Shown here: piece by piece, positions 713-32,702 of the stretch
Layout of the letters: every line of letters begins with the position of its first letter
How positions within the stretch are numbered: the stretch's first letter is position 1
Source: a virus
DNA length: 64,000 bases
IMG/VR virus record: IMGVR_UViG_3300025133_000042
Location: 1-64,000 of that record
Direction: 5' to 3' (one strand)
Position numbers and translations under genes: made by a program
Notes under the pieces: model-generated
What the model saw: the letters and a program-made list of their open reading frames with translations, nothing else
What the model was told of the DNA's origin: nothing
Databases searched by the model: none

Positions 713-1696
713 TCAAGACCCACCAAAGCCCGCCGGGGCTGATTTACTTCTCTTATAACTAGGTTTTTGGCCGTAAGGTGTTGAATTTTTTTGACCTCCG
801 AGGGCAATTAGGCGCTTTTTCATGCGTTTATGCCGCGATCTGATCTTTTTCTGGTACTTTTCTATTTCGTTGAGCTTCATTTGGTCTGATTTTAAGTCAT
901 TTTTAACAAAAATCTTCAATTTCCTACCAAATTTGCCGTTTAGAGACCTCATTTTATCATATGACTGCACATATATGTCATCTAGCAAGCCTAAATACTC
1001 AGAATTTCTTAAAATTTTAAAAGCCAAGTTCTCAGGGGAGAATTCACCACTGTCTTCTAGGCCTGATTTGCGAAAATTTCTTATTTTTTCCTTTAATTTA
1101 TCAGAAAATTCATGCGCTAGCGCGTAATTCTCTTCTTCCAGGAAGTCTGACGCACGTTCGATCTGATCTGCAAGCATTTCAGCCTTCTTCATGACCAATT
1201 TATCATCAATTGCTATCTCTTTTCTCTCGGGTCTGATTATCCAGTCGCCGTCTTTCACCGAAAAGACGCCAGTCGAGTGGTGTAACTCCCCAGAATCTTG
1301 TATATATATCTCAATTTGGTGTCCGGCCATGAAAATATCATGCTTTCTATTCCACATTCCGGATTTAGCTCTAAAAAAATCGCTTACTAGGTCCCGATCG
1401 AAGGGAATTTTTGAGAAGTCAACAATAATATGCAAATCGATATCTGAAAAATTAGTCCAATTATAGTTTGCGATCGACCCGGTTATGGTGATGTCTTCGA
1501 TGTTAACATCATCTATCTCCAGACTTTCCCAAAACTCTTCAGCAACTTGTAATATTTTCTCCCTTACTGCCTTTTTTAGATCATCGTCGTCCCACAGGCC
1601 AGTATAAAGTGTTTCTTTTGGTAGATATCTTTTTGGATCGACCAGTTTTCTCTCATTTATATAAGTATTCCAAGATTTTTTGTTCATTAAAGTCAT
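713..1696 (-). CDS. Pol-beta-superfamily nucleotidyltransferase
   Basis: TGSIANYNWTNFSDIDLHI (GS...DxD) motif plus EIYIQD. Confidence 0.75.
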   Translation of the reverse strand: MTLMNKKSWNTYINERKLVDPKRYLPKETLYTGLWDDDDLKKAVREKILQVAEEFWESLEIDDVNIEDITITGSIANYNWTNFSDIDLHIIVDFSKIPFDRDLVSDFFRAKSGMWNRKHDIFMAGHQIEIYIQDSGELHHSTGVFSVKDGDWIIRPERKEIAIDDKLVMKKAEMLADQIERASDFLEEENYALAHEFSDKLKEKIRNFRKSGLEDSGEFSPENLAFKILRNSEYLGLLDDIYVQSYDKMRSLNGKFGRKLKIFVKNDLKSDQMKLNEIEKYQKKIRSRHKRMKKRLIALGGQKNSTPYGQKPSYKRSKSAPAGFGGS

Positions 1697-3082: not shown

Positions 3083-3310
3083 CTAGCAGTCTGCTTTCTT
3101 CTTTGTGATCATCAATGTTTTTGTAATAACATCTGATTTAAACTCTTCCAACAAGTGTGAAAAATTTTCAATATCGGATTTTGTTATCTCATCCATCATC
3201 GCCCAAAGAGAATCAACTTCATCTTTAAGCTCTGCATTTTCTTTTTTAGCTTTTTCTATTAATTTATCGAGCTTTTTAATTTCTTCTTCTAATTCATCAA
3301 CTTTACTCAT
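3083..3310 (-). CDS. coiled-coil hypothetical protein
   Basis: heptad-rich ORF overlapping the upstream stop. Confidence 0.5.
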   Translation of the reverse strand: MSKVDELEEEIKKLDKLIEKAKKENAELKDEVDSLWAMMDEITKSDIENFSHLLEEFKSDVITKTLMITKKKADC

Positions 3311-5207
3311 TTGTTCCACCTTTACATATTTCATCAAGAATCTCCATCAAACTAGCATACATCTCAGTAGGATTGTTTGTGAGTTTATACCAAGCTCCAT
3401 TTCCAGCATTAGCAATATCTTCCCACTGTGTTGAGCCAGAAGATCTTGAGAATGTATATAGTTTAAGCTGCGGCGTGCCAGAAACAGCTGTTTTAACCTC
3501 TTCTACCTTTAATTCCGGACTCAAGTAGCTTTGAGGCTCCTCATCGCTAAAAACAATGATTATACGATCCGCGCCTGCCCGCCAACTAATATCAAAATTT
3601 TGCAAAGGCGGCGAGGATTCGATTACGCTAGTTCCTATTCCATTTGTGCCAGCTGCTCCAGACCATTGAAAATTAGACATGGGCTGAGGAAGGGTCGCCG
3701 TAATATTATGTACCGATATATAAATTGCATCAAGGAGCATTTCAAAAGCAGTACTCATCGATTGGGAGCTAGTATCCATGGCGGCCAAAGAAGCCAGGTA
3801 ATCAGAGAACCCGATTAAGTCTTGTACTAGTTCCAAACGCTCGTCATAAGTTGAAGGCAGCACAGCCACAGGCCCGCGCATAAATGCCCACTTAATAACA
3901 TCTTCGTCACTGAAATTTTGCGCAAATTGATTTAATGCTATCATTACGGCACTCATTTCATCGCCCATAGATCCAGACCAGTCAACAATGAAAAGAACAT
4001 CAGTTTCTTTCATCTCTTCGCCCCAGTCTGCTATGCCATCACAATCATCATCAAGCCCATTGCAAATTTCTGTTTGAGGTGTTATTTCGCCACTGCAATA
4101 AAATGGAATGAAGTTCTCGTCATCATCATAACTCCCCCACGCGCCGGCATCACAAGTCATTTCGCCTGGTATGCATATGCCGGTCATTATCGTTCCTTCT
4201 GGTCCGGTGTAGCATGGAGCATTGAGATCTTCATCGATTTCTTGGTTGCAGTTATCATCAAAATTATTACACTTTTCCTGGCTTAGTTCCATTCCAATCA
4301 GGGGATCACAAACACTATTTGGATCTCCAGAAGGCACCCAATAACACAAAGCATAGCATTCTGTCATCGCAAGGTCTATACAATCCGGATCTAAGCATTG
4401 ACATGTTTTATATCCCTGCCCACATAATAATGGATCATCTTGACACGGAAACAACACTCCGACATCCTGCATCGTACAAACACATTCTAGCCCTTCGTCG
4501 ATCTGACCGTCGCAGTCGTTATCTAAGCCATCGCAAACTTCATCTAATTCAGCCGGCGCAGTACAAGATACCCAGCTTCCCTCATAACACATCTCGTATC
4601 CAGCTCCGCATGCTGTGCTGCAGGGCTGAATAAGCCCTTCGTCTGTATCTCCGTCACAATCATCATCAAAACCGTTACACTGCTCGCCAGGTATTATTCC
4701 ACACTCGTCACATGCATTTAGCTGCCCTTCGTCGATTTCTCCATCGCAATCATCATCTTCATAGTTGCATAATTCTTCTTCGCAGGCTGTAGTGCAATCT
4801 GTATATTGTATCAAGCCTTTATTACAAACTTTTTCTTGAGTGCCAGGATATCCATCTGCAGTCGTACATTCAACTTCAGCAATAAGATATTGTGTTGGAT
4901 CGCACTCCATATACTGTATGCATTCAGATTCCGAATATAATACCTTGGGGTCTTCACAAATATTAAAGCATATCTCTTTTCTCCAAATTGAATCTAGTGG
5001 AGGGCAAAAATACCAATCGCACTCAATACACTCCGGATCCGGCGGAGGAGGTTCGGCTACCCAAGGAATAACTTCTATTATATCTTCTTCTTGTACATCT
5101 ACATCTTCAACTACATCTGGAATATTAGTATTATGCTCTTGTCCCGCATCGCTGCAACTAATCTGCAGAGAAATAAGCGCTACAAGAGCCAATACCAAAT
5201 TTTTCAT
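3303..5207 (-). CDS. lipoprotein with Cys/Asp metal-binding repeats (MopE-like) and C-terminal VWA domain
   Basis: lipobox-like ISC; five ExCxxxDxxCxxxxDx repeats; DVLFIVDWSGSM MIDAS motif. Confidence 0.75.
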   Translation of the reverse strand: MKNLVLALVALISLQISCSDAGQEHNTNIPDVVEDVDVQEEDIIEVIPWVAEPPPPDPECIECDWYFCPPLDSIWRKEICFNICEDPKVLYSESECIQYMECDPTQYLIAEVECTTADGYPGTQEKVCNKGLIQYTDCTTACEEELCNYEDDDCDGEIDEGQLNACDECGIIPGEQCNGFDDDCDGDTDEGLIQPCSTACGAGYEMCYEGSWVSCTAPAELDEVCDGLDNDCDGQIDEGLECVCTMQDVGVLFPCQDDPLLCGQGYKTCQCLDPDCIDLAMTECYALCYWVPSGDPNSVCDPLIGMELSQEKCNNFDDNCNQEIDEDLNAPCYTGPEGTIMTGICIPGEMTCDAGAWGSYDDDENFIPFYCSGEITPQTEICNGLDDDCDGIADWGEEMKETDVLFIVDWSGSMGDEMSAVMIALNQFAQNFSDEDVIKWAFMRGPVAVLPSTYDERLELVQDLIGFSDYLASLAAMDTSSQSMSTAFEMLLDAIYISVHNITATLPQPMSNFQWSGAAGTNGIGTSVIESSPPLQNFDISWRAGADRIIIVFSDEEPQSYLSPELKVEEVKTAVSGTPQLKLYTFSRSSGSTQWEDIANAGNGAWYKLTNNPTEMYASLMEILDEICKGGTNE

Positions 5208-5218
5208 ATGCTAAACCC

Positions 5219-5518
5219 TCATGGTCTTCTTCGTTTAAAGATGCCTCTCATGTCAATTTCTTGTGTCTCTCTGTCTGCGTCGAATGCATGGTCATGAAGC
5301 GCGCAGTACTCTGAATAAAGATCTGCCATCGCTTTTCCACACTTATAAGCGCTAGGATACTTTTTATAAAAAAATGCTTGACCCGCCGATCCAAGCCAAA
5401 AATTTGGATGCATTTTCCATTTCTGAGTAAGTACGTTTGCTCTTGCCTCGCCAATAAACTCCCCTTCAACATAAATCGCTTGAGTATATTCGTCTATTTG
5501 TTTCCAAGATATACTCAT
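5219..5518 (-). CDS. hypothetical protein
   Basis: ORF coupled to the endolysin stop. Confidence 0.5.
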   Translation of the reverse strand: MSISWKQIDEYTQAIYVEGEFIGEARANVLTQKWKMHPNFWLGSAGQAFFYKKYPSAYKCGKAMADLYSEYCALHDHAFDADRETQEIDMRGIFKRRRP

Positions 5519-6369
5519 CTGATATCCTCTAAAATCTTGTCCAACTCAAGGCCGGCACAATCTATCTTGCCCCGCGTTAAGTGATAATGACAAACGACCC
5601 CTTTATATTTTCTATTCTTTGCAGGATCGTAGACTTTTGTTATCAAATCGCCGTTTTCAGTAGGGCACTGGAGGGGTATGTCATAATGACTGCTCAAAGC
5701 TCTTAAAAGGGCCTTGTAGGCTGCAATTTGAACAGGATAGTATCCAAGGTGCGGTCCTAGCTTTCTACCATGGACGCGGCTGGTTATTACAGGGCGTTTG
5801 CCAAATTTGTGTGCCTCATACCACTTATTGTATTTTGTGTAATATGCATTAGAAAAATCTATTCCTATCGAAACGCCATTAACTCCGCCTGCATGCCAGG
5901 CGGCATGGTTAGTATCGACAAACTGATGAATAACGCCATCATTATCAATACAAAAATGAGAAGATATCCCTCTTGCATGCAAAACTCTTCTGCACTTCTC
6001 CGCTGAAGTTGTTGCGTCCCAGTGCGTAACAATCATCTTTGGCTTTCTGATGGATCTAGATTTTTTATAGCAATTAGATGGAAGGAGGCTTAACTTGACA
6101 TCCCAGTCAATCTTCATCTTGACTCCATCTACTAGTATAAAGCTACCGAATCCGCGCGCGTCAAGGTCGCGACTACTAAGAAGCCTTCTGAAGGTCTGAG
6201 GACCAACCAGTCCATCAGTTTTTAAGCTGTGTTCTGCCTGAAAAAGTTTAATCCTTGCGATTAGGTATTTATCAAATCCTTGCAGCATCGGATCAAGCCA
6301 AGTTGGATCCCAGCCAAACTTTTTGGCTGATTTTTTATTATAGTTATTTATTCTCCACTCGCTAAACAT
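5515..6369 (-). CDS. endolysin: peptidoglycan-binding domain + N-acetylmuramoyl-L-alanine amidase (Amidase_2)
   Basis: FQAEHSLKTDGLVGPQT PG-binding motif; IVTHW, SSHFCIDNDG, AWHAG, CHYH, KIDC. Confidence 0.85.
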   Translation of the reverse strand: MFSEWRINNYNKKSAKKFGWDPTWLDPMLQGFDKYLIARIKLFQAEHSLKTDGLVGPQTFRRLLSSRDLDARGFGSFILVDGVKMKIDWDVKLSLLPSNCYKKSRSIRKPKMIVTHWDATTSAEKCRRVLHARGISSHFCIDNDGVIHQFVDTNHAAWHAGGVNGVSIGIDFSNAYYTKYNKWYEAHKFGKRPVITSRVHGRKLGPHLGYYPVQIAAYKALLRALSSHYDIPLQCPTENGDLITKVYDPAKNRKYKGVVCHYHLTRGKIDCAGLELDKILEDIR

Positions 6370-6430: not shown

Positions 6431-7174
6431 TTATTCCTCGTATTTGTATTTATATGAGCCCGGCGGCGGCGACACGGTATTGCCACGAGCATATGCACTA
6501 TCACCTTTTTCAGGCTTATAGTCAGGATCTTTTACGCAGTCCCCGCCAGAGCCACCAGCGCTCTTCCAAAAGTAACCGTCAGGACAATTGCCTTCTTCAA
6601 GCTCATCCTCTTCTAACTTTCTCTTTTTTGCACTCGAAAAGCGCTCAGCATAATCTTTGTCGGCACTAACGCTCTCCGGCTCTTCGGCACCCCGAGATTT
6701 CATTTGTCTGATCGCCTGCAGCGCTGCCATGTCAACTGCCGTCTTCTTAGATTGTCCGCGCTTAGATTTTTTGCCAATGCCCTGGAGGTGCTGCTTAAAT
6801 CTCTCTCCAAAGCCCTCATCAAAGATTTTTACAATCTCCTCTTTGACAACCTGTTCAAGATCTTCTTCCTCTTTAAGAGTGCCTTGCTGTTTTTTAATTA
6901 GACTTACTACATTCATAGCGATATCATATTCATATTGGCTGACTTTTCCACTGGCCAATAGTTGCTCAAGCTCTAATTCAATATCTTCGGTACCTTGCGC
7001 AAGCTTAGACATAGGGATATCTCCTGACTCGTCATCAAAAGCTTGGTCGTATTTGCCAGAAAATTTTATATCTCCCATCGTCGGTGAGTCTTCTCCCCCC
7101 ACATCCCGCGCTTCCCGCATTGCGTCAGCTTCTTCTTTAATAATTTGCTTTAATCGTTTTTTTGTAATTTTCAT
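6431..7174 (-). CDS. MKITK-leader protein (putative virion internal protein)
   Basis: MKITKKRLKQIIKEE leader. Confidence 0.65.
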   Translation of the reverse strand: MKITKKRLKQIIKEEADAMREARDVGGEDSPTMGDIKFSGKYDQAFDDESGDIPMSKLAQGTEDIELELEQLLASGKVSQYEYDIAMNVVSLIKKQQGTLKEEEDLEQVVKEEIVKIFDEGFGERFKQHLQGIGKKSKRGQSKKTAVDMAALQAIRQMKSRGAEEPESVSADKDYAERFSSAKKRKLEEDELEEGNCPDGYFWKSAGGSGGDCVKDPDYKPEKGDSAYARGNTVSPPPGSYKYKYEE

Positions 7175-7198
7175 GTTAAGGGTCCTTTAACTCTTTCT

Positions 7199-7609
7199 TT
7201 AATTGCATCCTTCGTACTGGCATGCCTGGCACTCTCCGCCGCGACACTTCCCGCTAGCACAATCCTCCGTGCTCTTGCACTCCCCGCCGGCTTTCTTTCC
7301 AACAAATCCACCCGGAGTTTGATCTCTGCAGCATTCCCATTCAGGAAATAATTCAGGAAACCACTTGAGTTCGAGCGGCCCCGGCCGGCCGCCGCGCTTA
7401 GCTTTTGCTTCCGCCTCCCGACGCCTCCGGTCAGCTAGCACGGCTCCAGCTGCTCCTCCGTGGCTTTTAAAAGCTCCTTTCCCCGCAGCTGCTCGTTCGC
7501 GCTCAATACGATCCAAAGTACCATATCCCGGTCCGCTCCCCCATTCCTTGATTGCAGCTGCTAGCTCTTCTTTAATAATTTGCTTTAATCGTTTTTTTGT
7601 AATTTTCAT
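7199..7609 (-). CDS. MKITK-leader protein with Cys-rich C-terminus
   Basis: leader; ECKSTEDCASGKCRGGECQAC. Confidence 0.65.
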   Translation of the reverse strand: MKITKKRLKQIIKEELAAAIKEWGSGPGYGTLDRIERERAAAGKGAFKSHGGAAGAVLADRRRREAEAKAKRGGRPGPLELKWFPELFPEWECCRDQTPGGFVGKKAGGECKSTEDCASGKCRGGECQACQYEGCN

Positions 7610-8529
7610 TATTCAAAAACACCACTTTCCGTGTGTAATATTTCTGCAGCTTGTTTTAGTACGGTAGCTTCTTCTGGATTAAAACTATCGGCAACGTTGC
7701 GTAAATCTTCCGCCATTTGGAATAAGTCAGGCGTTTCAGGCAGCTCAATGTCTTCTTTTAGTCCCTCTTCAGGCAAATCAAGTTGCTGTTGTTCACCGGA
7801 TTGCATTTGCATTAAATCAGCCCATTTTTCTGGATCAGATACCTTCAGATCATCCATCATTCTTGTTAACATTCCGGCCGGCCATCTTTTTAAAGCAGCA
7901 AGAACATGATCATAAGATTCGCGTGCCTCTTTAGCTGCTGTTATCTCTTCTTCCAAAAATTGTTTTATCTGTTCTTCTGTGATTTTATCTCTTTCCAACG
8001 CCTCATGAGTAGCAAGTCCGCTCGTGCCTCCGCCAACAGTTCCTCGCGCCGGCGCGCCGGGTATGTCTCCGGCTTGTGTATATCCTGAATACTTTCCCTG
8101 ATTGATATTAAGCCACGTCAACAAGGGCTTCATTTCAGGACCATATATCCAAGAACGTAATGCACGTTGAGGGCCCGAAGCTGAAATGCCGGCCAACATC
8201 ATATCTGCAGATATTTTATTATCAACTAACTTATTCAGCGCCTCTTCGTTTGAAAATCCTGCCTTTTCGAAAATCCTGCTCCAATAATTTTTTAGGCCCT
8301 CCGGAGACAGCCTGTCTCTGGCATATTTTCTGCCCATCCCGGCATGCCCTGAAACTCCCGTTCGGCCAGCCCCGGGCACGTGATGGCCACCAGCTCCAGC
8401 CGGCCCCGATCGCGCCTCATGAAAAGTCGTCTGCAGTTCTTCTTTGATTTGTTTCAGGCCCTCTCCATTCAGAAGATGCTCTATTTCTTCTTTAATAATC
8501 TGCGCTAGCAGTTGTTTTGTAATTTTCAT
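7609..8529 (-). CDS. MKITK-leader protein
   Basis: MKITKQLLAQIIKEE plus internal copy KITEEQIKQFLEEE. Confidence 0.65.
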   Translation of the reverse strand: MKITKQLLAQIIKEEIEHLLNGEGLKQIKEELQTTFHEARSGPAGAGGHHVPGAGRTGVSGHAGMGRKYARDRLSPEGLKNYWSRIFEKAGFSNEEALNKLVDNKISADMMLAGISASGPQRALRSWIYGPEMKPLLTWLNINQGKYSGYTQAGDIPGAPARGTVGGGTSGLATHEALERDKITEEQIKQFLEEEITAAKEARESYDHVLAALKRWPAGMLTRMMDDLKVSDPEKWADLMQMQSGEQQQLDLPEEGLKEDIELPETPDLFQMAEDLRNVADSFNPEEATVLKQAAEILHTESGVFE

Positions 8530-8726
8530 TAATCTGTATCTCCATAGTGCTCATCTTCGAGCCAGTCTAGCGGGTATTCCCTCTCTTCATTCTCTTTATT
8601 CTGAATCATTTGACATACTTCCACAATATGCTCTTTCGGAATCGTATTTTTCATCTCAATCAAATTTTTCTTAGCCTCCATGGAGGTTAAAGTATTCTTA
8701 GACATCTCAACGCATATCAAGCACAT
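8529..8726 (-). CDS. small hypothetical protein (CxxC start)
   Basis: TAATG-coupled on both sides. Confidence 0.55.
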   Translation of the reverse strand: MCLICVEMSKNTLTSMEAKKNLIEMKNTIPKEHIVEVCQMIQNKENEEREYPLDWLEDEHYGDTD

Positions 8727-9250
8727 TATTCATTCTCCTTGTTTTCATATTGCGATACTAAATGTTGTCTTCTTAATTTTTCCATTTCCTCGGGATTGCC
8801 GCGGCTCCAATGCGGCGCAACGGCCCTTACATGCGCCATCTTTGCTGCTCCGAGCATAAATTCAAATCGTTGTGAGGCCTGTTCTAGTTCTTCCGGAATA
8901 TCTTGATTGCCAAATTTTCCAGCAAGACTATCTAATAATTCCATGCCTTCCTTGGCATATTTAAAAACGGCTTTCCAGCCGCCTTTCCCAGTCCTCGTCG
9001 TCCCGGTAATCTCATTCACTTCTTCTTCTGCCAGGCCAGTACTTCCATATAAGCTCAAGACTCTAGTTAGGCTCTGATCATCAGCATTAGAAAATATTGC
9101 AAAAAGAGGATGCTTTTGGCCAAGCGTTCTCCACGATCGATTTGTAACCAGATCTAAAGCTTTTTGAGCTTTGTTCGGTACTTCTTCTTGTAAAACCGCC
9201 TCAAGCTCCTCGACAATTAGTTCTCTCAGTCGTTTTTCTGTTGTTTCCAC
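8726..9250 (-). CDS. divergent MKITK-leader protein
   Basis: METTEKRLRELIVEEL. Confidence 0.6.
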   Translation of the reverse strand: METTEKRLRELIVEELEAVLQEEVPNKAQKALDLVTNRSWRTLGQKHPLFAIFSNADDQSLTRVLSLYGSTGLAEEEVNEITGTTRTGKGGWKAVFKYAKEGMELLDSLAGKFGNQDIPEELEQASQRFEFMLGAAKMAHVRAVAPHWSRGNPEEMEKLRRQHLVSQYENKENE

Positions 9251-9251
9251 T

Positions 9252-9515
9252 TTATAAATACTCCTCGCTTTCGTTTAAGAATGGATCGTTTGTTGCTTTA
9301 TTGTCCTTCAGCGCCTGATGGAGAGCGAAAATTACACCATTGTCCAAATGAGTATACCGCGGAGGATCTTGTGCAGCCTGCTCAGCAGCTTCGACCAACA
9401 TTCGATTTAACTTGCTTCTAATTCTATCAATTGTCATATAGCCATATCCAGCAACCAAAACACTTCCCAGCTCTTCTTTAATAATCTGTTTTAATTGTGA
9501 TTTTGTTATTTTCAT
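9252..9515 (-). CDS. MKITK-leader protein
   Basis: MKITKSQLKQIIKEE; start corrected to 9515 (GGAGAG RBS). Confidence 0.65.
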   Translation of the reverse strand: MKITKSQLKQIIKEELGSVLVAGYGYMTIDRIRSKLNRMLVEAAEQAAQDPPRYTHLDNGVIFALHQALKDNKATNDPFLNESEEYL

Positions 9516-9516
9516 A

Positions 9517-9825
9517 TTATTCTCTCCCACGTCCCCCAACGCTGGCCTGTTTAGCTAAATATTCTAGCTTTGCAGCCAGGTCGTATTGATTTTCGCCATA
9601 TTGCAGGTCCAGTAACTCTCTAACAGCTGCCAATACTTCAGCCGTTTTTTCATCGGCGCGCCTGGTAACATCAAACATGCTAGGAGAGTGCCCAACTTCT
9701 GATGCTGGTGAGCCGAGAGGAGTTCCTGTTGCAAAGTCAGTACCAGCGACCGGTCGAATGGCTTCAAGTGACAACTGAAGTTCTTCTTTGACAATTTGTT
9801 TTAATTTTGATTTTGTAATTTTCAT
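9517..9825 (-). CDS. MKITK-leader protein
   Basis: MKITKSKLKQIVKEE. Confidence 0.65.
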   Translation of the reverse strand: MKITKSKLKQIVKEELQLSLEAIRPVAGTDFATGTPLGSPASEVGHSPSMFDVTRRADEKTAEVLAAVRELLDLQYGENQYDLAAKLEYLAKQASVGGRGRE

Positions 9826-9829
9826 GTTT

Positions 9830-10462
9830 TTATGCCTTCTTTAATACTTCAGCAGCATGCTTGCCAGTGAAGGGTTTTCTTCCCTTAGGTGATGACCATC
9901 TGACACTAACATTTTTCGCCCCGCGGGCAGTAACTTTGCCTTTCCCCAACTCAGGCTCTTGCTTGTGAACAACGGAATCTCCTTCACGAAATCCAAATTT
10001 GGGAGCAGCTTCTTCAAGAGCACCGCCCCTCGATCCAAGTTTGGATTCTATATTTTCATTTCTTTCTTTTTCTAAAACTTTTGATAATTCGTTTGTTGCT
10101 GTTCTATAGCTAGATGAAGTCAAGCCGCCCGGCGCATCGGCCTCTTTTACATAATTTTCCACCGCCGCGCGTAAATCGTCAGACATCGCCTGATCTTTCA
10201 AAGAATCTTTGAGGCCGCTTATAAGCTGTGCAGCTTCTCTCTGGTTACGATCATATAGCGCATTGTGCGCGCGAACAAAAATATGGTTTATGTATCGCCT
10301 AGAGCGTTCTTCCGTTGGCTGCGATCCTGTTTCCGTTGGCTGTCGAATGTCAGTGAATGCTCGTACGCCGTCGGGTACTTCCCACCCACCAGGCGCTTCT
10401 TTAATTGCGCGCTGCAACTCTTCTTTAATAATCTCTTTTAGTTTTTGTTTTGTAATTTTCAT
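9830..10462 (-). CDS. MKITK-leader protein with C-terminal KOW/SH3-like domain
   Basis: leader; FREGDSVVH...GKGKV...VSVRW. Confidence 0.65.
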   Translation of the reverse strand: MKITKQKLKEIIKEELQRAIKEAPGGWEVPDGVRAFTDIRQPTETGSQPTEERSRRYINHIFVRAHNALYDRNQREAAQLISGLKDSLKDQAMSDDLRAAVENYVKEADAPGGLTSSSYRTATNELSKVLEKERNENIESKLGSRGGALEEAAPKFGFREGDSVVHKQEPELGKGKVTARGAKNVSVRWSSPKGRKPFTGKHAAEVLKKA

Positions 10463-10971
10463 GATGCCTCCTCGATGGCTTCCCCTACAAAAATCGGATT
10501 TTTTCTTACGCCGCCGCCATATTGAGCGTATTCATAAACCTTGAATTCTCCACGTCGATACCGCGGTGATGTCTCCGTCGCAGCCAAATTAATTGCTTTT
10601 TGTGGGTCGTTCACAACTCTTTTTGAATTTCTTTTGACCCTGAAAACTTTTCCATCGGGCGCCACAACAGCAAAATAGTCTATATTTTCACCCTCTTTTA
10701 AAATTGTTCTTTGAATCGTAGATAAAATATATTGAGCACTATCACTTAAAGACCAAAAATCAGATCTTTCGCCGGCAAGAATATCCCTTACTGCTTGTTG
10801 TTCCGCGGGATCAGCAAGTTTTCTAATTTCATCATCAATTTTCATTTGCGCAGCTTCTTTATCACTTGGAATATCAGCAGGATCAATTCCTGTATCAATG
10901 TGCGCCTCTTTAATAGTTTTTTTAATCTCTTCTTTAATAATCTGTTTTAATTGTTGTTTGGTAATTTTCAT
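10459..10971 (-). CDS. MKITK-leader protein
   Basis: MKITKQQLKQIIKEE; start corrected to 10971 (ATGA overlap). Confidence 0.65.
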   Translation of the reverse strand: MKITKQQLKQIIKEEIKKTIKEAHIDTGIDPADIPSDKEAAQMKIDDEIRKLADPAEQQAVRDILAGERSDFWSLSDSAQYILSTIQRTILKEGENIDYFAVVAPDGKVFRVKRNSKRVVNDPQKAINLAATETSPRYRRGEFKVYEYAQYGGGVRKNPIFVGEAIEEAS

Positions 10972-11531
10972 CCTTTTGGCTCCCATGTATATCCTGGATC
11001 CTCGGGCCTATAGCCTCGACGCTGAGCTGCTTTTCTTCGCTGATCCTTTATCCGTTGCTTATCGGACGCAGCTGCTTTTTTATCAAGATCTTTTTTGTAT
11101 TCTGATTGCTTACGTGCTCTTCGAATTTCATACTCTGTATCAACGTCTTGTACTGCTTTTTTTGCTGTTTGTCCGCGCTCATAATCAGCTCCAGCTTTAA
11201 CGTTACCTGTTTCAATATCGGCTTCTGCCATGGCGACTAGTTCATCATAGATTCTTTTCTCTAAGCGACGAATTTCTTGACTGCTTAAACCAACCCTCGG
11301 CCAATTTCCTTTTTTCAGGCCCTTAAATCTTCCAGCCACCTTATCAACAGTTGATCTAGCCTCTAGTTCTGCATTTACAATACCGCCGACTTGCCATTTC
11401 GACAAGTCTTCAGCTTCTTCTGGCGATTCTGGTGTTGGCCATTTTTTTGGATCGGTATTAAATTTAGCACCGGTAAGACCAGCGAATTCTTCTTTAATAA
11501 TCTGTTTTAATTGTTGTTTGGTAATTTTCAT
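10968..11531 (-). CDS. MKITK-leader protein
   Basis: MKITKQQLKQIIKEE. Confidence 0.65.
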   Translation of the reverse strand: MKITKQQLKQIIKEEFAGLTGAKFNTDPKKWPTPESPEEAEDLSKWQVGGIVNAELEARSTVDKVAGRFKGLKKGNWPRVGLSSQEIRRLEKRIYDELVAMAEADIETGNVKAGADYERGQTAKKAVQDVDTEYEIRRARKQSEYKKDLDKKAAASDKQRIKDQRRKAAQRRGYRPEDPGYTWEPKG

Positions 11532-11833
11532 TCCGGAGCAACACCTTTTTCAATAGCAGCCCAACGATCATCATCAACCGCATCTTCTTTTCTCGCAGAC
11601 ATAGCTATTTGCTCAATTGTTTTTAATAAAGCCTCCGCTTTGCCATAAATCAATTCTATATTACTTGGCTTGGTAATTACAGTTTGGTCAAACTGCTTAA
11701 GTATCGAATCCAGATCACCAGCCAATTCTCTAGCTTTTACTAGAAGATTGTCGTTTGATTCTATATCAAGTTCTTGAATTAATTTTAATTCTTCTTTAAT
11801 AATCTCTTTTAGTTTTTGTTTTGTAATTTTCAT
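11528..11833 (-). CDS. MKITK-leader protein
   Basis: MKITKQKLKEIIKEE. Confidence 0.65.
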   Translation of the reverse strand: MKITKQKLKEIIKEELKLIQELDIESNDNLLVKARELAGDLDSILKQFDQTVITKPSNIELIYGKAEALLKTIEQIAMSARKEDAVDDDRWAAIEKGVAPE

Positions 11834-12162
11834 TCGTCTAGTTTCCCACCAGTTCGACTGGAATTCGCTTTAAAAATTGCTTCTATCCATGCGATTTTTG
11901 CAAGGTTGAAATCTGCCGTCAATTTGAAGTTTGGATCAAAATTTAATTTTAATTCTTTTGCTTTTTTCATTAGGATTGCTTGCCCATCTCGAATCATCTT
12001 AGAGCCTTTTTGCAAATCTTCTAGGCTGGGCGCAGGTCGCGGGCCCCGACGATCCAGAGCTTGGCGCGCGACAGCAACGGCGCGCTCATCGCGATAACTC
12101 TCTTGTAGCAGCGCTAGCTCTTCTTTTAAAATCTGCTTTATCTGCTCTTTTGTAATTTTCAT
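11830..12162 (-). CDS. MKITK-leader protein
   Basis: MKITKEQIKQILKEE. Confidence 0.65.
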   Translation of the reverse strand: MKITKEQIKQILKEELALLQESYRDERAVAVARQALDRRGPRPAPSLEDLQKGSKMIRDGQAILMKKAKELKLNFDPNFKLTADFNLAKIAWIEAIFKANSSRTGGKLDE

Positions 12163-12602
12163 TTTTCACTCCTTGTAATTTCAAAGAAAGCAACGTTAAT
12201 ATTCTGCTTGCTCCAATGAAAACTCTCAATTTTCAACTCAAAAATCTTAATATTAACCTCGCCGCCGAGCTTTCGGGCCATATGCTCACCCCAAGCGATG
12301 ACCAAAAGGCGAACAGCCGTGACTTCTTCCCGCGAAGCCGGCCCGGGCCAGGCCACAACAACCAACTCATCGATCCCCATGCACTTATGGTGTCGAGCAA
12401 AATTCGCTTTAAGACGAATTGCCCTCTGGCGCAAATTATACACTTCAACCGGATTTTTACAATTTTCCAGCCCTTTGATCGATATTTTGGCGATTTTTTC
12501 CGAATGCAAGGAGCTGTTAGCGCGATTTGATACATTACCAGCGGCGCAGGCCACCAATAATACAGATAAAAACACAGTTAGGGCTAATTTTAATAAATTT
12601 TT
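12159..12602 (-). CDS. lipoprotein
   Basis: MKNLLK...LLVAC lipobox. Confidence 0.6.
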   Translation of the reverse strand, partial: KNLLKLALTVFLSVLLVACAAGNVSNRANSSLHSEKIAKISIKGLENCKNPVEVYNLRQRAIRLKANFARHHKCMGIDELVVVAWPGPASREEVTAVRLLVIAWGEHMARKLGGEVNIKIFELKIESFHWSKQNINVAFFEITRSEK

Positions 12603-14872
12603 CATTTTTTGTATTTTCTCCACTCATTAAGTATGCCTTTCCAATCGTCAAAAGAGGAAAAACTACTTTCAGCAACTCGCTGCTGCCTTCTCATCTCGCT
12701 ATATGCATAATCTTTCTTAAATTTAGGAAGAATCTCTTTCACAATCATGTTTGTAACAATGGCCTCGGCCAGGAGCCTCAACCTCTCGTGAAATTTATCA
12801 TGATCTGCCATTTTAACAAATTTTTCAATGATTTTTAAGGCTTCTGGCTCTTCATTGCCCTGCAGCTGTACATCAAGCCATACTTCAATGCGATCTGCGA
12901 ATTTATACTCGCTGGTGCCGCCACCAAGACCAGTGCCGCCAGTTCTGGCTGTCTTAAAGCCAACATTGATGTTATAATCTGGAATAGGGTGGCCTGTTTC
13001 GGCTTCAGTTTCAGCAAGATTTAGCTTTTGCTGCGAAGCGATAATCTCAAGAGCCCGATCAGTGACATCTTGCATCCTCGCGATAATTTTATCTTTAAGC
13101 TTGTGCATATTTTGTCGCAGCCCGGTATGAATAGCTGTATGCATGGCCCGCATCAATCGATTTTCTTCTGTACCCTCAGGCCCGACGCCAGATTTTACTT
13201 TTGTCAGAAGCTCCGAGGGCAAATAAAGACGAACAGGCAAAAAAGTTGTCATTGTAACCTTGTTTTCTTCCAAATCAACGTCAAAATGCTTAAGATCCAT
13301 ATCCTCAAAGCGCTGAAGATTTGCATATGTTTCCTCACTCGCGAAGAAGCCGGCCTCATCAAGCCCAGACAAAAGCGTTTCGCGAAAATTTTCATACTCT
13401 GCGTCGTATTGCGACACGCGATCGACGAAAGCCTTAAACCCGTCCCAGCCCATTTCATCATAATCAGGGTCAACCCGTATGTAAGCTCGATTGCCACTAT
13501 CCTCTTCAACGTTATCTGGGTATATGCCGGCAGCATTCAAAGCGGACGTCACATAATCTTCAAAGCTGTCAATGTCTTCTGCCAGGCCTTCGGTTTCATC
13601 CAAATCAATTAATGCGCTTGCACTATAGTGATGGCCGTCTTCAATTGGCTCATAATAAATATTAAAATTCTCAACTTGCGCATCCCTTATATATTCCTCA
13701 TAATCATCAGCCGTTGCGCCGCCCGGATTTTCAACAGCATGCTGGCCAGCTTGACCCAGAATACTCCAATGATCCTCAGAAACAAGATCCTCGAAGGCTT
13801 CATGTACATCAACCTCAGTGGGGTCACCCAGCCCAAGGCCCTTCAAAATATACATAACAGTCTGAGGGATCGCAATCCCAGAATCCTCATGACCGCCATC
13901 GGAATAATCACTCATCCATTCAGTAAACACATCTTCCACATCAGAGGACAATTCCCGGGGATTAACTTGCGCGCCCTCATGGCCAGTGAAGACTTTATCG
14001 TCCTTACCCTCTCGGCCGGAGGCCGACCTAAAAATTTTCAGAAATTCTTTCGGGTTATCTTGCCCCAAAGCATACCCTTTCATCACCAAATTGCTATATG
14101 TACCGTCTCGTAAGCCGTCAGTGCCCACTTCATCGTCAGAGACATCATACACTTCCTCTGGTTCGGGCTCGCTAGATTCTTTTGCGTCAGCGCCATAAAC
14201 GAGGGCCATTTTCTTGTTCCAATCATCATTGTGAAGATGCTTAAAGAGGACAAAATAAAATACTTTGCCTTCCTTATCCGTATATTCGTCAAACCAGTTT
14301 CGCGACTCAGTTGCTGAGATGCACCATTTCGTGCCGCGTCCATAATAGCAAGCACCATCTTCGTCGTTTGGGCGAACCATCATCCAGTTATCTGCATCAT
14401 CGATAACGTCAGAGCTTTCTTTTGCTTTCTCTTCACGCTCTTTAGCATCATGCCGAGCCTGCAGCTCTTTATACGCAACGTAGATCTGTTGCTCCCAATC
14501 ACCAAAGTCCTTAAACTTGTTAATATCTTTGTCAATCAGGTTTTTTTCAGCTAAGCGATGGTATTTTCTTATATTATTGCGAATTGTGCTAAAGCGTCGA
14601 GATGCTTCATATTTAATCTCATTGCCAGCAGCGTCGACATCGCGCTGCATGCCAGTCTCATAGTTCTTTTGCATCTTAACCAGACGTGTATTGACCATGC
14701 CGGCAGCCCACATCGCGTATTTTTGGTTTCCGCTAGGGTCATTCGCGAGGATTTCGGTCTTAAAAAGGCCTTCAACGTACTGAATGACGTCCTGGCCCTT
14801 CAATCCCTTTACAACGCGCTTAAGGGCATCGTCCTTACGCCCCTCGACGAGAATTCGCGTTAACTGTTCCAT
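12602..14872 (-). CDS. large acidic phage protein (probable virion protein)
   Basis: ILVE N-terminus; ACYYGRGTKWCIS motif of the kind seen in large-phage proteins. Confidence 0.6.
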   Translation of the reverse strand: MEQLTRILVEGRKDDALKRVVKGLKGQDVIQYVEGLFKTEILANDPSGNQKYAMWAAGMVNTRLVKMQKNYETGMQRDVDAAGNEIKYEASRRFSTIRNNIRKYHRLAEKNLIDKDINKFKDFGDWEQQIYVAYKELQARHDAKEREEKAKESSDVIDDADNWMMVRPNDEDGACYYGRGTKWCISATESRNWFDEYTDKEGKVFYFVLFKHLHNDDWNKKMALVYGADAKESSEPEPEEVYDVSDDEVGTDGLRDGTYSNLVMKGYALGQDNPKEFLKIFRSASGREGKDDKVFTGHEGAQVNPRELSSDVEDVFTEWMSDYSDGGHEDSGIAIPQTVMYILKGLGLGDPTEVDVHEAFEDLVSEDHWSILGQAGQHAVENPGGATADDYEEYIRDAQVENFNIYYEPIEDGHHYSASALIDLDETEGLAEDIDSFEDYVTSALNAAGIYPDNVEEDSGNRAYIRVDPDYDEMGWDGFKAFVDRVSQYDAEYENFRETLLSGLDEAGFFASEETYANLQRFEDMDLKHFDVDLEENKVTMTTFLPVRLYLPSELLTKVKSGVGPEGTEENRLMRAMHTAIHTGLRQNMHKLKDKIIARMQDVTDRALEIIASQQKLNLAETEAETGHPIPDYNINVGFKTARTGGTGLGGGTSEYKFADRIEVWLDVQLQGNEEPEALKIIEKFVKMADHDKFHERLRLLAEAIVTNMIVKEILPKFKKDYAYSEMRRQQRVAESSFSSFDDWKGILNEWRKYKK

Positions 14873-15152
14873 TATAAGGCTAGAGAAGGCCACTAAAAAC
14901 ACTCCAAATGGGTTTTGCTCATTGTAATTAGTTCTTACTTCATAAGAGGCAGAACTTTATGAAGTAATAATGTATCAAAAAACGCTTTTTATTTTAATCA
15001 GTTTGCAGTTTGCTATCCTTAGCTAGAGATACCGCGTGTCCCACTCGCGCGCATGCCTGTTGAAATCTGCATGTTCAACCTTATAATCTCCAAATTATAT
15101 TTGGAATTAATTTTTAGGTTATTACATTATAACCATAACATAGGAGAACGTT

Positions 15153-25449: not shown

Positions 25450-25629
25450 CTATCTACTTGAAATTAAAGTAGTATCCTCTGCTGACTGCCAGAACGTCAT
25501 ACCGTCGACATGACTCAAGTATTTGAAGCCTATCCAAATTTTGCTTGAGCCCAGCGAATCCGCATCAACAGCCATGACTATTCCAACCCGGCCACTGTTG
25601 TTATCCTCAATCAAATCACCGACTTGCAC
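25450..25629 (-). CDS. KOW/SH3-like microprotein (59 aa, not in ORF track)
   Basis: MQVGDLIEDNNSGRVGIVM...LISSR. Confidence 0.65.
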   Translation of the reverse strand: MQVGDLIEDNNSGRVGIVMAVDADSLGSSKIWIGFKYLSHVDGMTFWQSAEDTTLISSR

Positions 25630-25801
25630 TGATAAGCTCCAAGGCGTATCGGGCGCAGCTTCCCGGCTCGCGGTCTGGCATTGTCGACCACTTGACCCGG
25701 CATCGTCTGGCCTGAGCCTCTACCGAGATAATGATTCCAATACCATACATTTGCGGTGGTGCAACGGCTGGCCTCATTCGTACCAAGTCACCGACTTGCA
25801 T
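25616..25801 (-). CDS. KOW/SH3-like microprotein
   Basis: MQVGDLV...GIGIII...VKW...LELISASR. Confidence 0.65.
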   Translation of the reverse strand: MQVGDLVRMRPAVAPPQMYGIGIIISVEAQARRCRVKWSTMPDREPGSCARYALELISASR

Positions 25802-25941
25802 TAGTCTCTCCAGCGAAGATGCTTCGCAACCTGACGTTTTGGCTTGCGCCTGCGACCCTTGCGGAAGTCATCGGCTCGCTTGTGATGGGCGCCAGCCTTG
25901 CCTGCATGCATCACTCGTGCGTCTATGCTTGCGTGTTTCAT
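25801..25941 (-). CDS. 46-aa basic peptide
   Basis: MKHASIDARVMHAGKAGAHHKR...; coupled on both sides. Confidence 0.45.
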   Translation of the reverse strand: MKHASIDARVMHAGKAGAHHKRADDFRKGRRRKPKRQVAKHLRWRD

Positions 25942-26135
25942 CTCCATCGCTCCAAATAAAGTGTGTTCGCCAGATAGGTGCTGCCCTCGGTATCCATGAC
26001 GCGAACAAAAGCCCGGTCGGTGGCGCCCGTGTCAACGAAGGACATAATCAAAGCCGGAACAATCTCGTTGTCGCGAGACATGGCCTTCACTAAAGCACCG
26101 GGCTTGATTTCATCTTGTCGAAGATATATGTTCAT
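25938..26135 (-). CDS. KOW/SH3-like microprotein
   Basis: IKPGALVKA. Confidence 0.5.
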   Translation of the reverse strand: MNIYLRQDEIKPGALVKAMSRDNEIVPALIMSFVDTGATDRAFVRVMDTEGSTYLANTLYLERWR

Positions 26136-26168
26136 GCCTACACTATAGGAACGAAAAAAAATAATTAA

Positions 26169-26342
26169 CTAATCTTCTGCCCATTCGCAACGAATAATAC
26201 GGCTGCTCCCACATGCGTGACAGTTGCTGCCGACGGCATGCCGGGTCGCACGAGGCTTTGTGTGGTATTTGCAACCACATGAGCCGCAGTAGTAGTTGTA
26301 CTCTGCTTTCTTCTTCTCAGGTGGCTTCATCGCTGCAAACAT
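26169..26342 (-). CDS. 57-aa zinc-ribbon protein (not in ORF track)
   Basis: YYCGSCG...CHACGS; GAGG RBS. Confidence 0.55.
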   Translation of the reverse strand: MFAAMKPPEKKKAEYNYYCGSCGCKYHTKPRATRHAVGSNCHACGSSRIIRCEWAED

Positions 26343-26479
26343 CTTCTTCCTCTGTTGCTACTATTATAGAGACATTCCCAGGATTAGAAAGGACGCCATC
26401 ATCATCACGAACCAAATCCCCTCTAGAATCTCGTATTTGTTCATCTTTTTTGCTCCCATTGGCAATGAAAAACCATTCG

Positions 26480-26749
26480 CTATTTGACATGAGAAACCAC
26501 CATAATTTCCCAACTTTGATGTTTCCGAACTCTTGGCTTTGGCGTTGCCTCGTGAGGCAGGCTCTTCAGCCAATGCACAACGACATCGTATCGTTCTTCT
26601 TTCCATGCCCCAAGCATATTCGCCTTGTGGCGCTCGACGACGTGCTCTTTTGCCAGCACAAATCCGTACCATTCCGGCCCAGAGCTAGGGAGCCAAGCCT
26701 CGCGGACGACGGCGCCGGGCTGGAGCTTTTTAGCTTCCTTCAATTTCAT
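26480..26749 (-). CDS. KOW/SH3-like protein
   Basis: LQPGAVV...GFVL...VVHW...IMVVS. Confidence 0.55.
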   Translation of the reverse strand: MKLKEAKKLQPGAVVREAWLPSSGPEWYGFVLAKEHVVERHKANMLGAWKEERYDVVVHWLKSLPHEATPKPRVRKHQSWEIMVVSHVK

Positions 26750-26928
26750 GGAGCCATAAACCTTTCCTTGTCTTCAGAAAAAGTATCGGTGGAGGCGTCA
26801 TCATTCTCTCTGTTGAGATTTGAGAGCAGGGCTTCAAGCACCTCAGCGCGCTCTTGCGCGGTATCCAGGCATTTAGAGCATTGCTCTTCCAGGGTTTGAG
26901 AAATAATGTCTTTCAAATTAGGATTCAT
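26746..26928 (-). CDS. small helical protein (probable paralog of 28434-28622)
   Basis: C...LD...E...V pattern. Confidence 0.5.
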   Translation of the reverse strand: MNPNLKDIISQTLEEQCSKCLDTAQERAEVLEALLSNLNRENDDASTDTFSEDKERFMAP

Positions 26929-27115
26929 TTAGAGCCTCCAGCCATCGTTCGCTGTTCCATGAATAGTCAGCGCAGCCACGGGGCGCGTCGAACCAGTATA
27001 CCCTGTAAGGACAGCCATTCGGGTTCGTAAGTTGTGGCCTGCTTACTTCTATTATAATCCCCAAGCTGTTGTGGTCAAGGGCATGATTGTTTTTTACCAA
27101 ATCACCGACTTTCAC
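26918..27115 (-). CDS. KOW/SH3-like microprotein
   Basis: MKVGDLV. Confidence 0.7.
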   Translation of the reverse strand: MKVGDLVKNNHALDHNSLGIIIEVSRPQLTNPNGCPYRVYWFDAPRGCADYSWNSERWLEALNES

Positions 27116-27348
27116 TTATCACCTGTACAGACTTTTGAGATTATTTTTACCAGACCTTCAGTCAGGGCATCTTCGCCTATGTCGCAGACGTAAGGAATAC
27201 TCGGCCACTTTATCTTCCATGAGGGCATCATGCCATCTGGGTATTCCGCTAATTCTCCAACTACGCCTACTTTGTAGCCTGGGCCGATAGCCACCACGAG
27301 ACCTATCTCGCCATCAGTATGGTCTTGAATTAAATCACCGACTTTCAC
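27112..27348 (-). CDS. KOW/SH3-like microprotein
   Basis: MKVGDLI. Confidence 0.7.
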   Translation of the reverse strand: MKVGDLIQDHTDGEIGLVVAIGPGYKVGVVGELAEYPDGMMPSWKIKWPSIPYVCDIGEDALTEGLVKIISKVCTGDK

Positions 27349-27523
27349 TGAAAACCTTTAGTTCTAGTGCGTCGTACCACATACGACCGATTTCCTCAAA
27401 GTCGTCGAACCACTGTACCTCAAAGTAGACGGCGCCTTCGGCGCTCTCGTGGGAGTCCAGTACAATGCCTTTTCCTGGTGGATGTAGCCGATTGTTACGG
27501 ACAACCAAATCACCGACTTTCAC
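27335..27523 (-). CDS. KOW/SH3-like microprotein
   Basis: MKVGDLV...SESR; start corrected to the GTG in the junction. Confidence 0.7.
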   Translation of the reverse strand: MKVGDLVVRNNRLHPPGKGIVLDSHESAEGAVYFEVQWFDDFEEIGRMWYDALELKVFSESR

Positions 27524-27701
27524 TGACAATCTCCAGATCTTCTTCTTCATACCACAGAAAGTCTTCAGGCCACTGGACGCATATGCTTAGCGCGGAGTGC
27601 CTCGACGACTCTATCATTATTACAATGCCGATGCCAGAGTCAATGTCCGACCCAAAAACTAGGCTTCCCTCTTTGCACCTTACCAAATCACCGATTTTCA
27701 C
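27510..27701 (-). CDS. KOW/SH3-like microprotein
   Basis: MKIGDLV...SESR. Confidence 0.7.
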   Translation of the reverse strand: MKIGDLVRCKEGSLVFGSDIDSGIGIVIMIESSRHSALSICVQWPEDFLWYEEEDLEIVSESR

Positions 27702-27855
27702 TGAGTATTACCAACTGAGATTCCGGCCATTGTATTCGTTCGTCGCCACAAATAACTGTATACCAGCCACGCCAGGCCTCCGACGAAGAAACTATTAAGC
27801 CGAGCCTCTCGTCAGAAAACGAACCAATCAGCTTAACAATATCACCGACTTTCAT
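27688..27855 (-). CDS. KOW/SH3-like microprotein (55 aa, not in ORF track)
   Basis: MKVGDIVKLIGSFSDERLGLIV...LSENR. Confidence 0.7.
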   Translation of the reverse strand: MKVGDIVKLIGSFSDERLGLIVSSSEAWRGWYTVICGDERIQWPESQLVILSENR

Positions 27856-28024
27856 TTAGCAACTCCAAAAGTTCATGCTCGATGGGGTAAAGCCCGCTAT
27901 GCTCAGGGCTACCAAACCAATGAATAATAGCCTGGTCTCCATACTTATCGCCGTCGATGTCCAAGATAATGCCGATATCTTTCGCGTGTGGATGTGTCCA
28001 CTTAACCAAATCACCGACTTTCAT
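27842..28024 (-). CDS. KOW/SH3-like microprotein
   Basis: MKVGDLV...NESR; leaderless, 6 nt from the -10 box. Confidence 0.7.
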   Translation of the reverse strand: MKVGDLVKWTHPHAKDIGIILDIDGDKYGDQAIIHWFGSPEHSGLYPIEHELLELLNESR

Positions 28025-28044
28025 GTCTTAATCATAGGTACGGA

Positions 28045-28251
28045 TTACGAGGAGTAAAGAGTGTCGATTTGATTTTCGAGGACAGAGTGTCTGTACGGGT
28101 CATGGTTCGGACAATGGTTCCACTGAACGAAGTACCATGGTGTGTATTCTTTATCGGGCTGACCTTTGTCAATGCAGACGAGGAGACCAATACTCCCCGC
28201 GTCCCATATACGACCCTCTTCGAGGGCTATTACAATATCACCTGCTTTCAC
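28045..28251 (-). CDS. KOW/SH3-like microprotein
   Basis: MKAGDIV. Confidence 0.7.
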   Translation of the reverse strand: MKAGDIVIALEEGRIWDAGSIGLLVCIDKGQPDKEYTPWYFVQWNHCPNHDPYRHSVLENQIDTLYSS

Positions 28252-28447
28252 TAATTAACTCCAGTTCTTCAGGGTCGTGCCACAAAAAATCATCGTTCCA
28301 TTGAACGCGAAAACTCTTCCACGGTTCGGTCTCGCAGTCGCCGTCGATATAGGTGCCCTCGTCCATCATAGTAATGACGCCGGGGCCATAGTAAACACCT
28401 GATACCTGCCAGTTCTCTTTGAGCAGTGCAATATCACCGACTTTCAT
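28238..28447 (-). CDS. KOW/SH3-like microprotein
   Basis: MKVGDIA...SESR; start corrected. Confidence 0.7.
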   Translation of the reverse strand: MKVGDIALLKENWQVSGVYYGPGVITMMDEGTYIDGDCETEPWKSFRVQWNDDFLWHDPEELELISESR

Positions 28448-28622
28448 TGTTACACTTTCCCAGTCGACGCATACGGCATCCACACCGATTGTCAATCCAC
28501 CGTTCGACTGTATTCCCAATGACTTCCATCACGGCCTCAAAATCTTCTTTGTTATCTAGGGAACGAGCATCGCACTTCTGTGCTAGCATATGTTCGATTT
28601 CTTTTACAAGATCATGCTTCAC
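28434..28622 (-). CDS. small helical protein
   Basis: non-KOW gene ending NESR. Confidence 0.5.
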   Translation of the reverse strand: MKHDLVKEIEHMLAQKCDARSLDNKEDFEAVMEVIGNTVERWIDNRCGCRMRRLGKCNNESR

Positions 28623-28812
28623 TGATTAACTCCAGTTCATGTGTTCCGTGAAAAGAAAAATCATCGATCCACTGTATTCTGTGAGAAACAAATCCCTCTT
28701 CGGGGTAGTCATCTTCGGGGTAGTCAGTTATAGATGTAATAACGCCAGGGCCATAGTAAACACCTTTTATCTGGTATTCCTCTTTGAGCAGAACGATATC
28801 ACCGACTTTCAC
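28612..28812 (-). CDS. KOW/SH3-like microprotein (close paralog of 28238-28447)
   Basis: shared LLKE..GVYYGPGVIT..QW.DDF..H..ELELISE. Confidence 0.7.
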   Translation of the reverse strand: MKVGDIVLLKEEYQIKGVYYGPGVITSITDYPEDDYPEEGFVSHRIQWIDDFSFHGTHELELISEA

Positions 28813-30618: not shown

Positions 30619-30622
30619 GCGG

Positions 30623-32663: not shown

Positions 32664-32702
32664 GAAATGTGAACTGGCGAGGCCCAGCCTACGCCCCCAG
32701 AG

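Follow-up and report, generated by a model that had tools for sequence, protein, structure and literature searches.

The internal proteins of bacteriophage T4 are addressed to the scaffolding core by an N-terminal capsid-targeting sequence (CTS) of 10-19 residues, which the protease gp21 removes after an L/I-x-E motif; in T-even phages these proteins form a diverse set with the CTS as their only common part, and the CTS has been proposed to be an evolutionary device that loads varied proteins into T4-like heads (PMC9026906, PMC3012670). The T4 CTS reads MKTYQEFIAE (PMC8442874), and maturation of T4 gp23 removes 65 residues (PMC9026906). In the phiKZ-like giant phages (phiKZ, 201phi2-1, SPN3US), inner-body or ejection proteins are cut after S/A-x-E by a diverged gp21 homologue (PMC9026906, PMC5694885). 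As to gene exchange, the hypervariable regions of T-even phages contain PeSLs, short repeats between unrelated genes that mark exchange points (Comeau et al. 2014, PMC4122927), and the internal protein palette has long been proposed to be shuffled between related phages (Repoila et al. 1994, as related in PMC4122927). Here, we analyse the first 64 kb (hereafter, the window) of a 104,857-bp IMG/VR viral contig from an uncultured T4-like phage, where a run of twelve genes, almost all beginning with the same short peptide, the leader, points to a T4-style system with a tag of its own.

The twelve consecutive genes, tightly coupled, fill positions 6431-12162 of the minus strand. Ten of them open with MKITKxx[LI]K[QE]I[ILV]KEE, g8 has a divergent copy behind a GTG start and g9x is leaderless; the count of 11 leaders on 12 consecutive genes given in an earlier note on this DNA is therefore borne out. 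Shuffles predict 0.02 occurrences of a degenerate DNA pattern for MKITK, and the window contains 10. We also searched with a leader hidden Markov model (HMM) trained only on leaders from other contigs. It recovered the 11 array genes and one gene outside the window, all at E <= 3.6e-4, the next best match having E = 0.71, and the tag is found on exactly 12 genes of the whole contig.

The leader had first been described as 15 amino acids (aa) long, which has to be corrected. Indeed, in 190 leader proteins from other contigs, conservation reaches about residue 22, with hydrophobic residues at 16 and 19-20 and Glu at 21-22; the consensus of ~22 residues is MKITKSQLKQIIKEELEKVLEE. Residues 12-14 read [ILV]-[KV]-E in each of the 12 leaders (Lys in 11, Val in g8), and eight of the 12 have a second hydrophobic-x-E at 19-22. 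AlphaFold models the leader as helical (residues 5-16 in g7, 5-22 in g5) with a linker after the helix, and as modelled the leader is an amphipathic helix of ~22 residues. In the g7 family, insertions of 0-30 residues sit exactly between the invariant leader and a small alpha/beta core. The leader's codons vary freely from phage to phage at synonymous positions (ATC/ATT/ATA, CTT/CTA/TTA, AAA/AAG) while its residues are fixed, which argues for selection on the peptide rather than on an RNA element.

The same contig, whose completeness is rated 58% by CheckV, encodes a T4-type head. Its prohead protease is a Peptidase_S77 (gp21) protein, matched by Pfam PF03420 with E = 2.2e-27 at 90757-91212 and by the PHROGs head maturation protease family phrog_207 with E = 6e-56; His87 (ELDHP) and Ser140/141 (GISSRG) align with ELNHP and GVSSRG of T-even gp21. 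The major capsid protein is of the Gp23 type (PF07068, E = 5e-60 at 86.4-88.0 kb) and shares only ~30% identity with gp23 of T-even phages and cyanophages; in the GenBank phage collection searched, it matched an uncultured 484-kb phage best (38%). A portal protein (phrog_213) and a large terminase are also encoded. When the capsid protein is aligned with T-even gp23, the T4 maturation site FLTE/A (E65/A66; a slash marks a known or candidate cut) falls on KQLLKE59/ASS. The leader reads KQIIKE14/E, and its likeness to the LLKE/A site is a motif match only.

The leader and this type of protease also travel together. Peptidase_S77 was present in nine of ten other leader-bearing contigs tested, the exception being a fragment rated 20% complete, and in relatives the tagged genes directly adjoin the protease gene or lie a short way upstream of the terminase-portal block. 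A conserved protein of ~130-143 aa (141 aa here) is encoded behind the protease gene in each of six phages compared, directly after it in four of them and with one gene between in G005 and G002. The 141-aa protein starts with MNKTELKKILKPLIKECIKE, and the N-terminus of its family, M-x-K-[ST]-[EQ]-L-K-K-x-[IL]-K-P-[LV]-[VI]-K-E-C-I-x-E, includes two [LIV]-K-E motifs; we detected no homology between this protein and T-even gp68. Separately, the 605-aa capsid protein, like its G003 homologue, has, relative to T-even gp23, an insertion of ~200 residues after the conserved FMDF segment (alignment columns ~150-400), which may be an extra surface domain.

Altogether, we consider it probable, at roughly 70%, that the shared leader is a T4-style capsid-targeting propeptide acting by a tag-and-cut mechanism, a reading made by analogy with T4. 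Through the leader helix, the nascent protein would dock to the scaffolding core during prohead assembly. The gp21-type protease would then remove the leader, cutting behind the Glu of [ILV]-K-E14 and, for the majority of members, also behind that of the second [LIVM]-x-E near residue 21-22, which would leave the variable body free inside the head, and the body would probably exit with the DNA at infection. In T4, an Asp in place of the P1 Glu blocks such cutting. We infer docking, cleavage, virion presence and ejection, as well as any anti-host role, and we regard delivery of the cargo to the host as less probable than the tag-and-cut mechanism. The head-packaging tag proposed in the earlier note has thus gained strong circumstantial support, from the T4-type protease, capsid and portal proteins, the [ILV]-K-E match, the co-occurrence with the protease and the gene position in relatives.

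Several points weigh against this reading. Packaging and cleavage of the tagged proteins rest on analogy, and the leader has no demonstrable homology to the T4 CTS: compared by eye, the two have in common only M-K-(x)-T and a hydrophobic-x-E end, with lengths of 14-22 and 10 residues, respectively. The [ILV]-x-E motif is short and would arise easily in Lys/Glu-rich helices. The array of this phage is remote from its head genes and sits beside the endolysin gene, and a scan for a T4-type late promoter (TATAAATA) upstream of the array found none; scans for sigma-70 promoters and terminators returned nothing informative on the timing of the array. The tagged proteins are mostly acidic, the mature isoelectric point being below 6 in seven of the 12 here and in 79% of the 190 proteins of relatives. 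T4 Alt and CTS fusions also load, so that a small basic body is no strict requirement. Finally, the N-terminus of the 141-aa protein resembles the leader weakly (hhalign P = 2.3e-4 over 10 columns, HMM E = 8.4), and this likeness is suggestive only.

The cargo behind the leader is unrelated from gene to gene, as had been claimed: in an all-against-all BLASTP of the leaderless bodies, the best E-value was 0.059. Pfam and PHROGs assigned no family to ten array proteins, and PHROGs, which includes T-even proteins, gave no match to any tagged protein. A protein atlas search returned unnamed viral clusters only, and Foldseek with the g7 model found nothing in the PDB at E <= 0.001. Among the labels given earlier to the cargo, Cys-rich (g11) and helical hold, and SH3-like for the end of g5 is unconfirmed because the AlphaFold predicted local distance difference test score is below 50 there; this C-terminal module is also unrelated (E = 0.13) to a microprotein array at 25-31 kb of the window. 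Almost none of the 341 distinct tagged proteins that we collected has a known domain. Among the 100 longest tagged proteins of relatives, we found leucine-rich repeats (LRR) in two, a DUF2115 domain in one and a DnaJ (J) domain in one (L089:6893-7471 (-), E = 1e-14).

Some array genes are composites of modules that occur separately elsewhere. The first module of g4 is orthologous to a 97-aa gene of the relative G011, and the second (ILKE/GENIDYF...) sits behind a full leader in the metagenome protein P0019, which indicates that g4 is a fusion in which the start of the next cassette was lost and L-K-E/G was kept. The C-terminal module of g5 is found behind other leaders and middles in three other arrangements (P0018-P0020), one of them with a second, internal leader. 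For g10, the last module forms a small tagged gene of its own, with a clear leader, in P0022 and P0023, the middle module occurs behind a degenerate leader in P0024, and a weak leader-like stretch lies within the protein at residues 182-202, with a junction that reads EGLKE/D. Since the joints keep an L-K-E linker that looks cleavable, the modules of a fused gene could still be separated by cutting, and a retained cut-site-like linker is what protease-resolved cargo would need, although this is an inference from sequence.

Array content turns over from one relative to another. Among 13 bodies (those of the twelve array genes and of the tagged gene outside the window), homologues in ~190 loci of relatives were found only for g7 (12 matches), g4 (one) and g9x (one). 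The nearest relative, G011, encodes a 749-aa homologue of the 766-aa anchor protein found upstream of the array, followed directly by the g4 orthologue; it has neither the lipoprotein gene nor g1-g3 at this site, and two different tagged genes come after the g4 orthologue. In G012, the g9x orthologue (L200:16332-16520 (+)) is directly upstream of different tagged genes. A peptide-pattern search with the 766-aa anchor protein gave no match in viral contigs. The notion of an exchangeable payload is thus supported by the differing content of the nearest relatives compared here and by modules in other combinations, and the cargo genes behave as cassettes, which related phages acquire, lose, split and fuse.

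The leader pattern matched more than 117 IMG/VR contigs, and a second search returned 206 stretches. In 185,579 prokaryotic genomes it was found in one contig only, at 1163-1207 (-) of L205 (PBSV01000031.1, a 15.9-kb contig of an Opitutia metagenome-assembled genome). This may be a phage contig binned with that genome, which would be a weak clue to the host. Such a distribution, almost confined to viruses, also favours the capsid-targeting reading. Searches of 50,697 GenBank phage records with the array (blastn) and with g7 (tblastn) found no leader match, a result that is not decisive given the short match and the low-complexity filter.

Besides a tag, the earlier note had proposed that the leader is a recombination handle. 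The three identical leader pairs on which this was based are confirmed, at 44/45 nucleotides (nt): 7131-7174/7566-7609, 10419-10462/11790-11833 and 10928-10971/11488-11531. In the 45 nt on either side of the paired leaders, identity drops to 9-15/45, the random level, and each pair has private synonymous codons in common (ACC for Thr, CTA for Leu, AAG/CAA). One pair encloses another, g2[g3 g4]g5, and the third consists of the neighbours g11/g12; such exact boundaries and nesting fit insertion or conversion through leader homology. Moreover, the 87% DNA homology with G011 begins exactly at the ATG of g4. A 3.2-fold enrichment of inter-contig homology breakpoints at leaders relative to random positions was rejected as evidence: ordinary gene starts are equally enriched, the signal is thus unspecific, and a conditioned test was used instead. 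Of the homologies that cover the 5' body of a gene, a fraction of 0.83 stop at the gene start for leader genes (n = 70) and of 0.43 for other genes (n = 1277). These data points are not independent, and the excess may simply come from the location of leader genes in a hypervariable region. The recombination handle therefore has moderate support: the identical pairs, the exact breakpoint at an ATG and the conditioned test speak for it, and the simple breakpoint test is unspecific.

Other explanations of the leader have to be weighed against a capsid-targeting propeptide. The tagged proteins could be disposable parts of the prohead core, comparable to T4 gp22, gp67 and gp68; the leader would bring them into the scaffold, the protease would degrade them, and the pieces would exit the head ahead of DNA entry, with no delivery to the host. 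The acidic bodies would suit scaffold proteins, several bodies contain further [LI]-x-E motifs, the fusion joints are cleavable on paper, an N-terminus like the leader is present on the small conserved protein encoded behind the protease, and T4 core proteins are indeed cut into fragments that exit the head (PMC9026906). A structural core should however be conserved, and we find the reverse: outside g7, g4 and g9x no body has a homologue in the ~190 related loci, and content differs even among nearest relatives. The DnaJ and LRR cargo of some relatives also suits host-directed roles better than scaffolding, and we think a disposable core improbable.

The slim chance that the leader is a docking or regulatory helix unrelated to the head (binding a cytoplasmic partner from host or phage, acting as a degradation tag or attaching to neck or tail) draws on the position of this array, beside lysis and unassigned genes rather than head genes, and on the fact that placing the tagged proteins in the head is an analogy. 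Such a helix would leave unexplained the strict co-occurrence with a gp21-type protease, the invariant [ILV]-K-E-E that mirrors the aligned cut site of the capsid protein, the tagged genes beside the protease gene in relatives and the L-K-E kept at fusion joints. It is highly unlikely that conservation serves the nucleic acid, as an element for translation coupling or initiation or as a recombination site and nothing else, the peptide being incidental. Within the genome, leader DNA is nearly uniform, with three identical pairs, its ATGA provides the upstream stop in four junctions, and A-rich first codons favour initiation. Across phages, it is the residues that are fixed and the synonymous codons that are free, on which ground we rejected an RNA element, and synonymous identity is only modestly higher for leaders of one locus (0.68-0.79) than for those of different loci (0.57). 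A family of ribosomally synthesized and post-translationally modified peptide precursors was rejected as well, as the bodies are folded or helical proteins of 70-290 aa and neither the array nor its immediate surroundings yielded a modifying enzyme.

If the capsid-targeting propeptide and the recombination handle are taken together, an abundant clade of uncultured T4-like phages would possess an integrase-free cassette system with the leader as its unit. The coding leader would double as the homology for inserting, deleting and fusing cargo modules, the pairs g2[g3 g4]g5 and g11/g12 would be the expected trace of single-crossover insertion of a circular cassette, and fused modules would be polyproteins resolved by the head protease at retained L-K-E joints. 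We put this combined proposal forward as tentative and, taken as a whole, rather unlikely.

The coordinates of the array and of the other genes discussed are collected in Table 1. The leader's own ATGA forms the stop of the upstream gene in four overlaps (g1 to g5); the remaining junctions are three TAATG overlaps and otherwise gaps of 1-24 nt.

Table 1. Genes of the tagged array, its surroundings and the head genes of the phage. Positions are those of the window unless marked as contig.
Feature	Position	Strand	Description
g1	11830..12162	-	110 aa; leader MKITKEQIKQILKEE, then LALLQE/S; basic body; leader HMM E = 1.3e-9
g2	11528..11833	-	101 aa; leader MKITKQKLKEIIKEE; leader DNA 44/45 with g5; ATGA overlap with g1
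g3	10968..11531	-	187 aa; leader MKITKQQLKQIIKEE; leader DNA 44/45 with g4
g4	10459..10971	-	170 aa; fusion of two cargo modules
g5	9830..10462	-	210 aa; modelled leader helix 5-22, disordered linker, helical bundle 51-145, C-terminal module
g6	9517..9825	-	102 aa; leader MKITKSKLKQIVKEE
g7	9252..9515	-	87 aa; sole cargo family widely conserved among relatives
g8	8726..9250	-	174 aa; GTG start, begins METTEKRLRELIVEE; divergent leader METTEKRLRELIVEELEAVLQE/E; leader HMM E = 3.6e-4
g9x	8529..8726	-	65 aa; no leader, starts MCLICVE (CxxC)
g10	7609..8529	-	306 aa; composite of about three modules
g11	7199..7609	-	136 aa; Cys-rich C-terminus (8 Cys); leader DNA 44/45 with g12
g12	6431..7174	-	247 aa; acidic body; closes the array, with the endolysin gene next downstream
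Tagged gene outside the window	contig 66913-67260		leader MSMTKKRLKQIIKEE (MSMTKKRLKQIIKEEISGLLEAE); found by leader HMM
Anchor protein, function unassigned	12602..14902	-	766 aa; upstream of the array
Predicted lipoprotein	12159..12623	-	154 aa; between the anchor gene and g1
Endolysin	5515..6369	-	Amidase_2 and PG_binding_1 domains; directly downstream of the array
Gp23-type major capsid protein	contig 86380-88197	-	605 aa
Candidate scaffold protein	contig 88199-89329		
Conserved small protein	contig 90202-90627	-	141 aa; behind the protease gene
Prohead protease	contig 90652-91296		Peptidase_S77 (gp21)

Almost all genes of the window are on the minus strand, and they include those for a DNA polymerase, a ribonucleotide reductase, a DnaB helicase and GroEL, as well as seven tRNAs. 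One tRNA of the phage cluster, at 32702-32774 (-), has the anticodon UUA, which reads the UAA stop. The leaderless g9x may regulate the array or be a small partner of it that binds zinc. Another predicted lipoprotein, of 634 aa, is encoded at 3303-5207 (-), downstream of the endolysin gene; it contains Cys/Asp metal-binding repeats of the MopE type (PF11617, E = 1e-12) and matches VWA weakly, and G012 and G003 have DNA homologous to this region. The microprotein array of the window, at 25450-30808, is conserved in the nearest relative, G011, where L198:10830-11987 (-) contains similar tandem genes of 57-83 aa starting with M-x-V-G-D-[IL]-V.

If the tag does load the capsid, it would label, at the sequence level, the virion-delivered proteins of hundreds of uncultured T4-like phages. 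Virion-delivered proteins act ahead of any phage gene expression. In T4, the delivered proteins include an anti-restriction protein, which makes the tagged set a targeted starting point in the search for new counter-defence functions. Engineering of phages other than the T-even group could also make use of the leader as a portable tag for loading. Furthermore, the cut sites kept in the fused genes suggest an ability of head proteases to resolve polyprotein cargo, an ability that to our knowledge is undescribed for T4. Should the integrase-free cassette proposal also be true, the tag would list, with no more than sequence data, the delivered effector set of hundreds of uncultured phages, a set probably rich in new anti-defence proteins.

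The leader is absent from the literature that we searched and appears to be undescribed, within a class of mechanism already known from T4 and, in a looser form, from the phiKZ-like phages. As with the T4 CTS (IPI, IPII, IPIII, Alt), it would be a short N-terminal propeptide on otherwise unrelated proteins that ends in hydrophobic-x-Glu, in a phage with homologues of gp20, gp21 and gp23 and at a locus that is polymorphic between relatives. It differs from the T4 CTS in sequence, in its greater length (~22 against 10-19 residues), in its helical character and in its two candidate cut sites. Twelve genes are tagged in this genome, against a handful in T4, and the cargo is mostly acidic, unlike the basic IPII and IPIII, with modules that are fused and split. 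The family described here extends over hundreds of uncultured contigs, with no cultured member found, and is known from its genes. Like the phiKZ-like phages, this phage is predicted to have many head-internal proteins whose N-terminal propeptides are cut after Glu by a gp21-related protease, and the proposed delivery of paralogous, variable cargo to the host is a further likeness; those phages differ in having no uniform portable leader, another cut motif and another head lineage, the capsid here being of the T4 gp23 type. Finally, PeSLs are non-coding promoter/stem-loop units that lie between genes, whereas in this array the sole repeat is the coding leader itself, which is a candidate crossover site.

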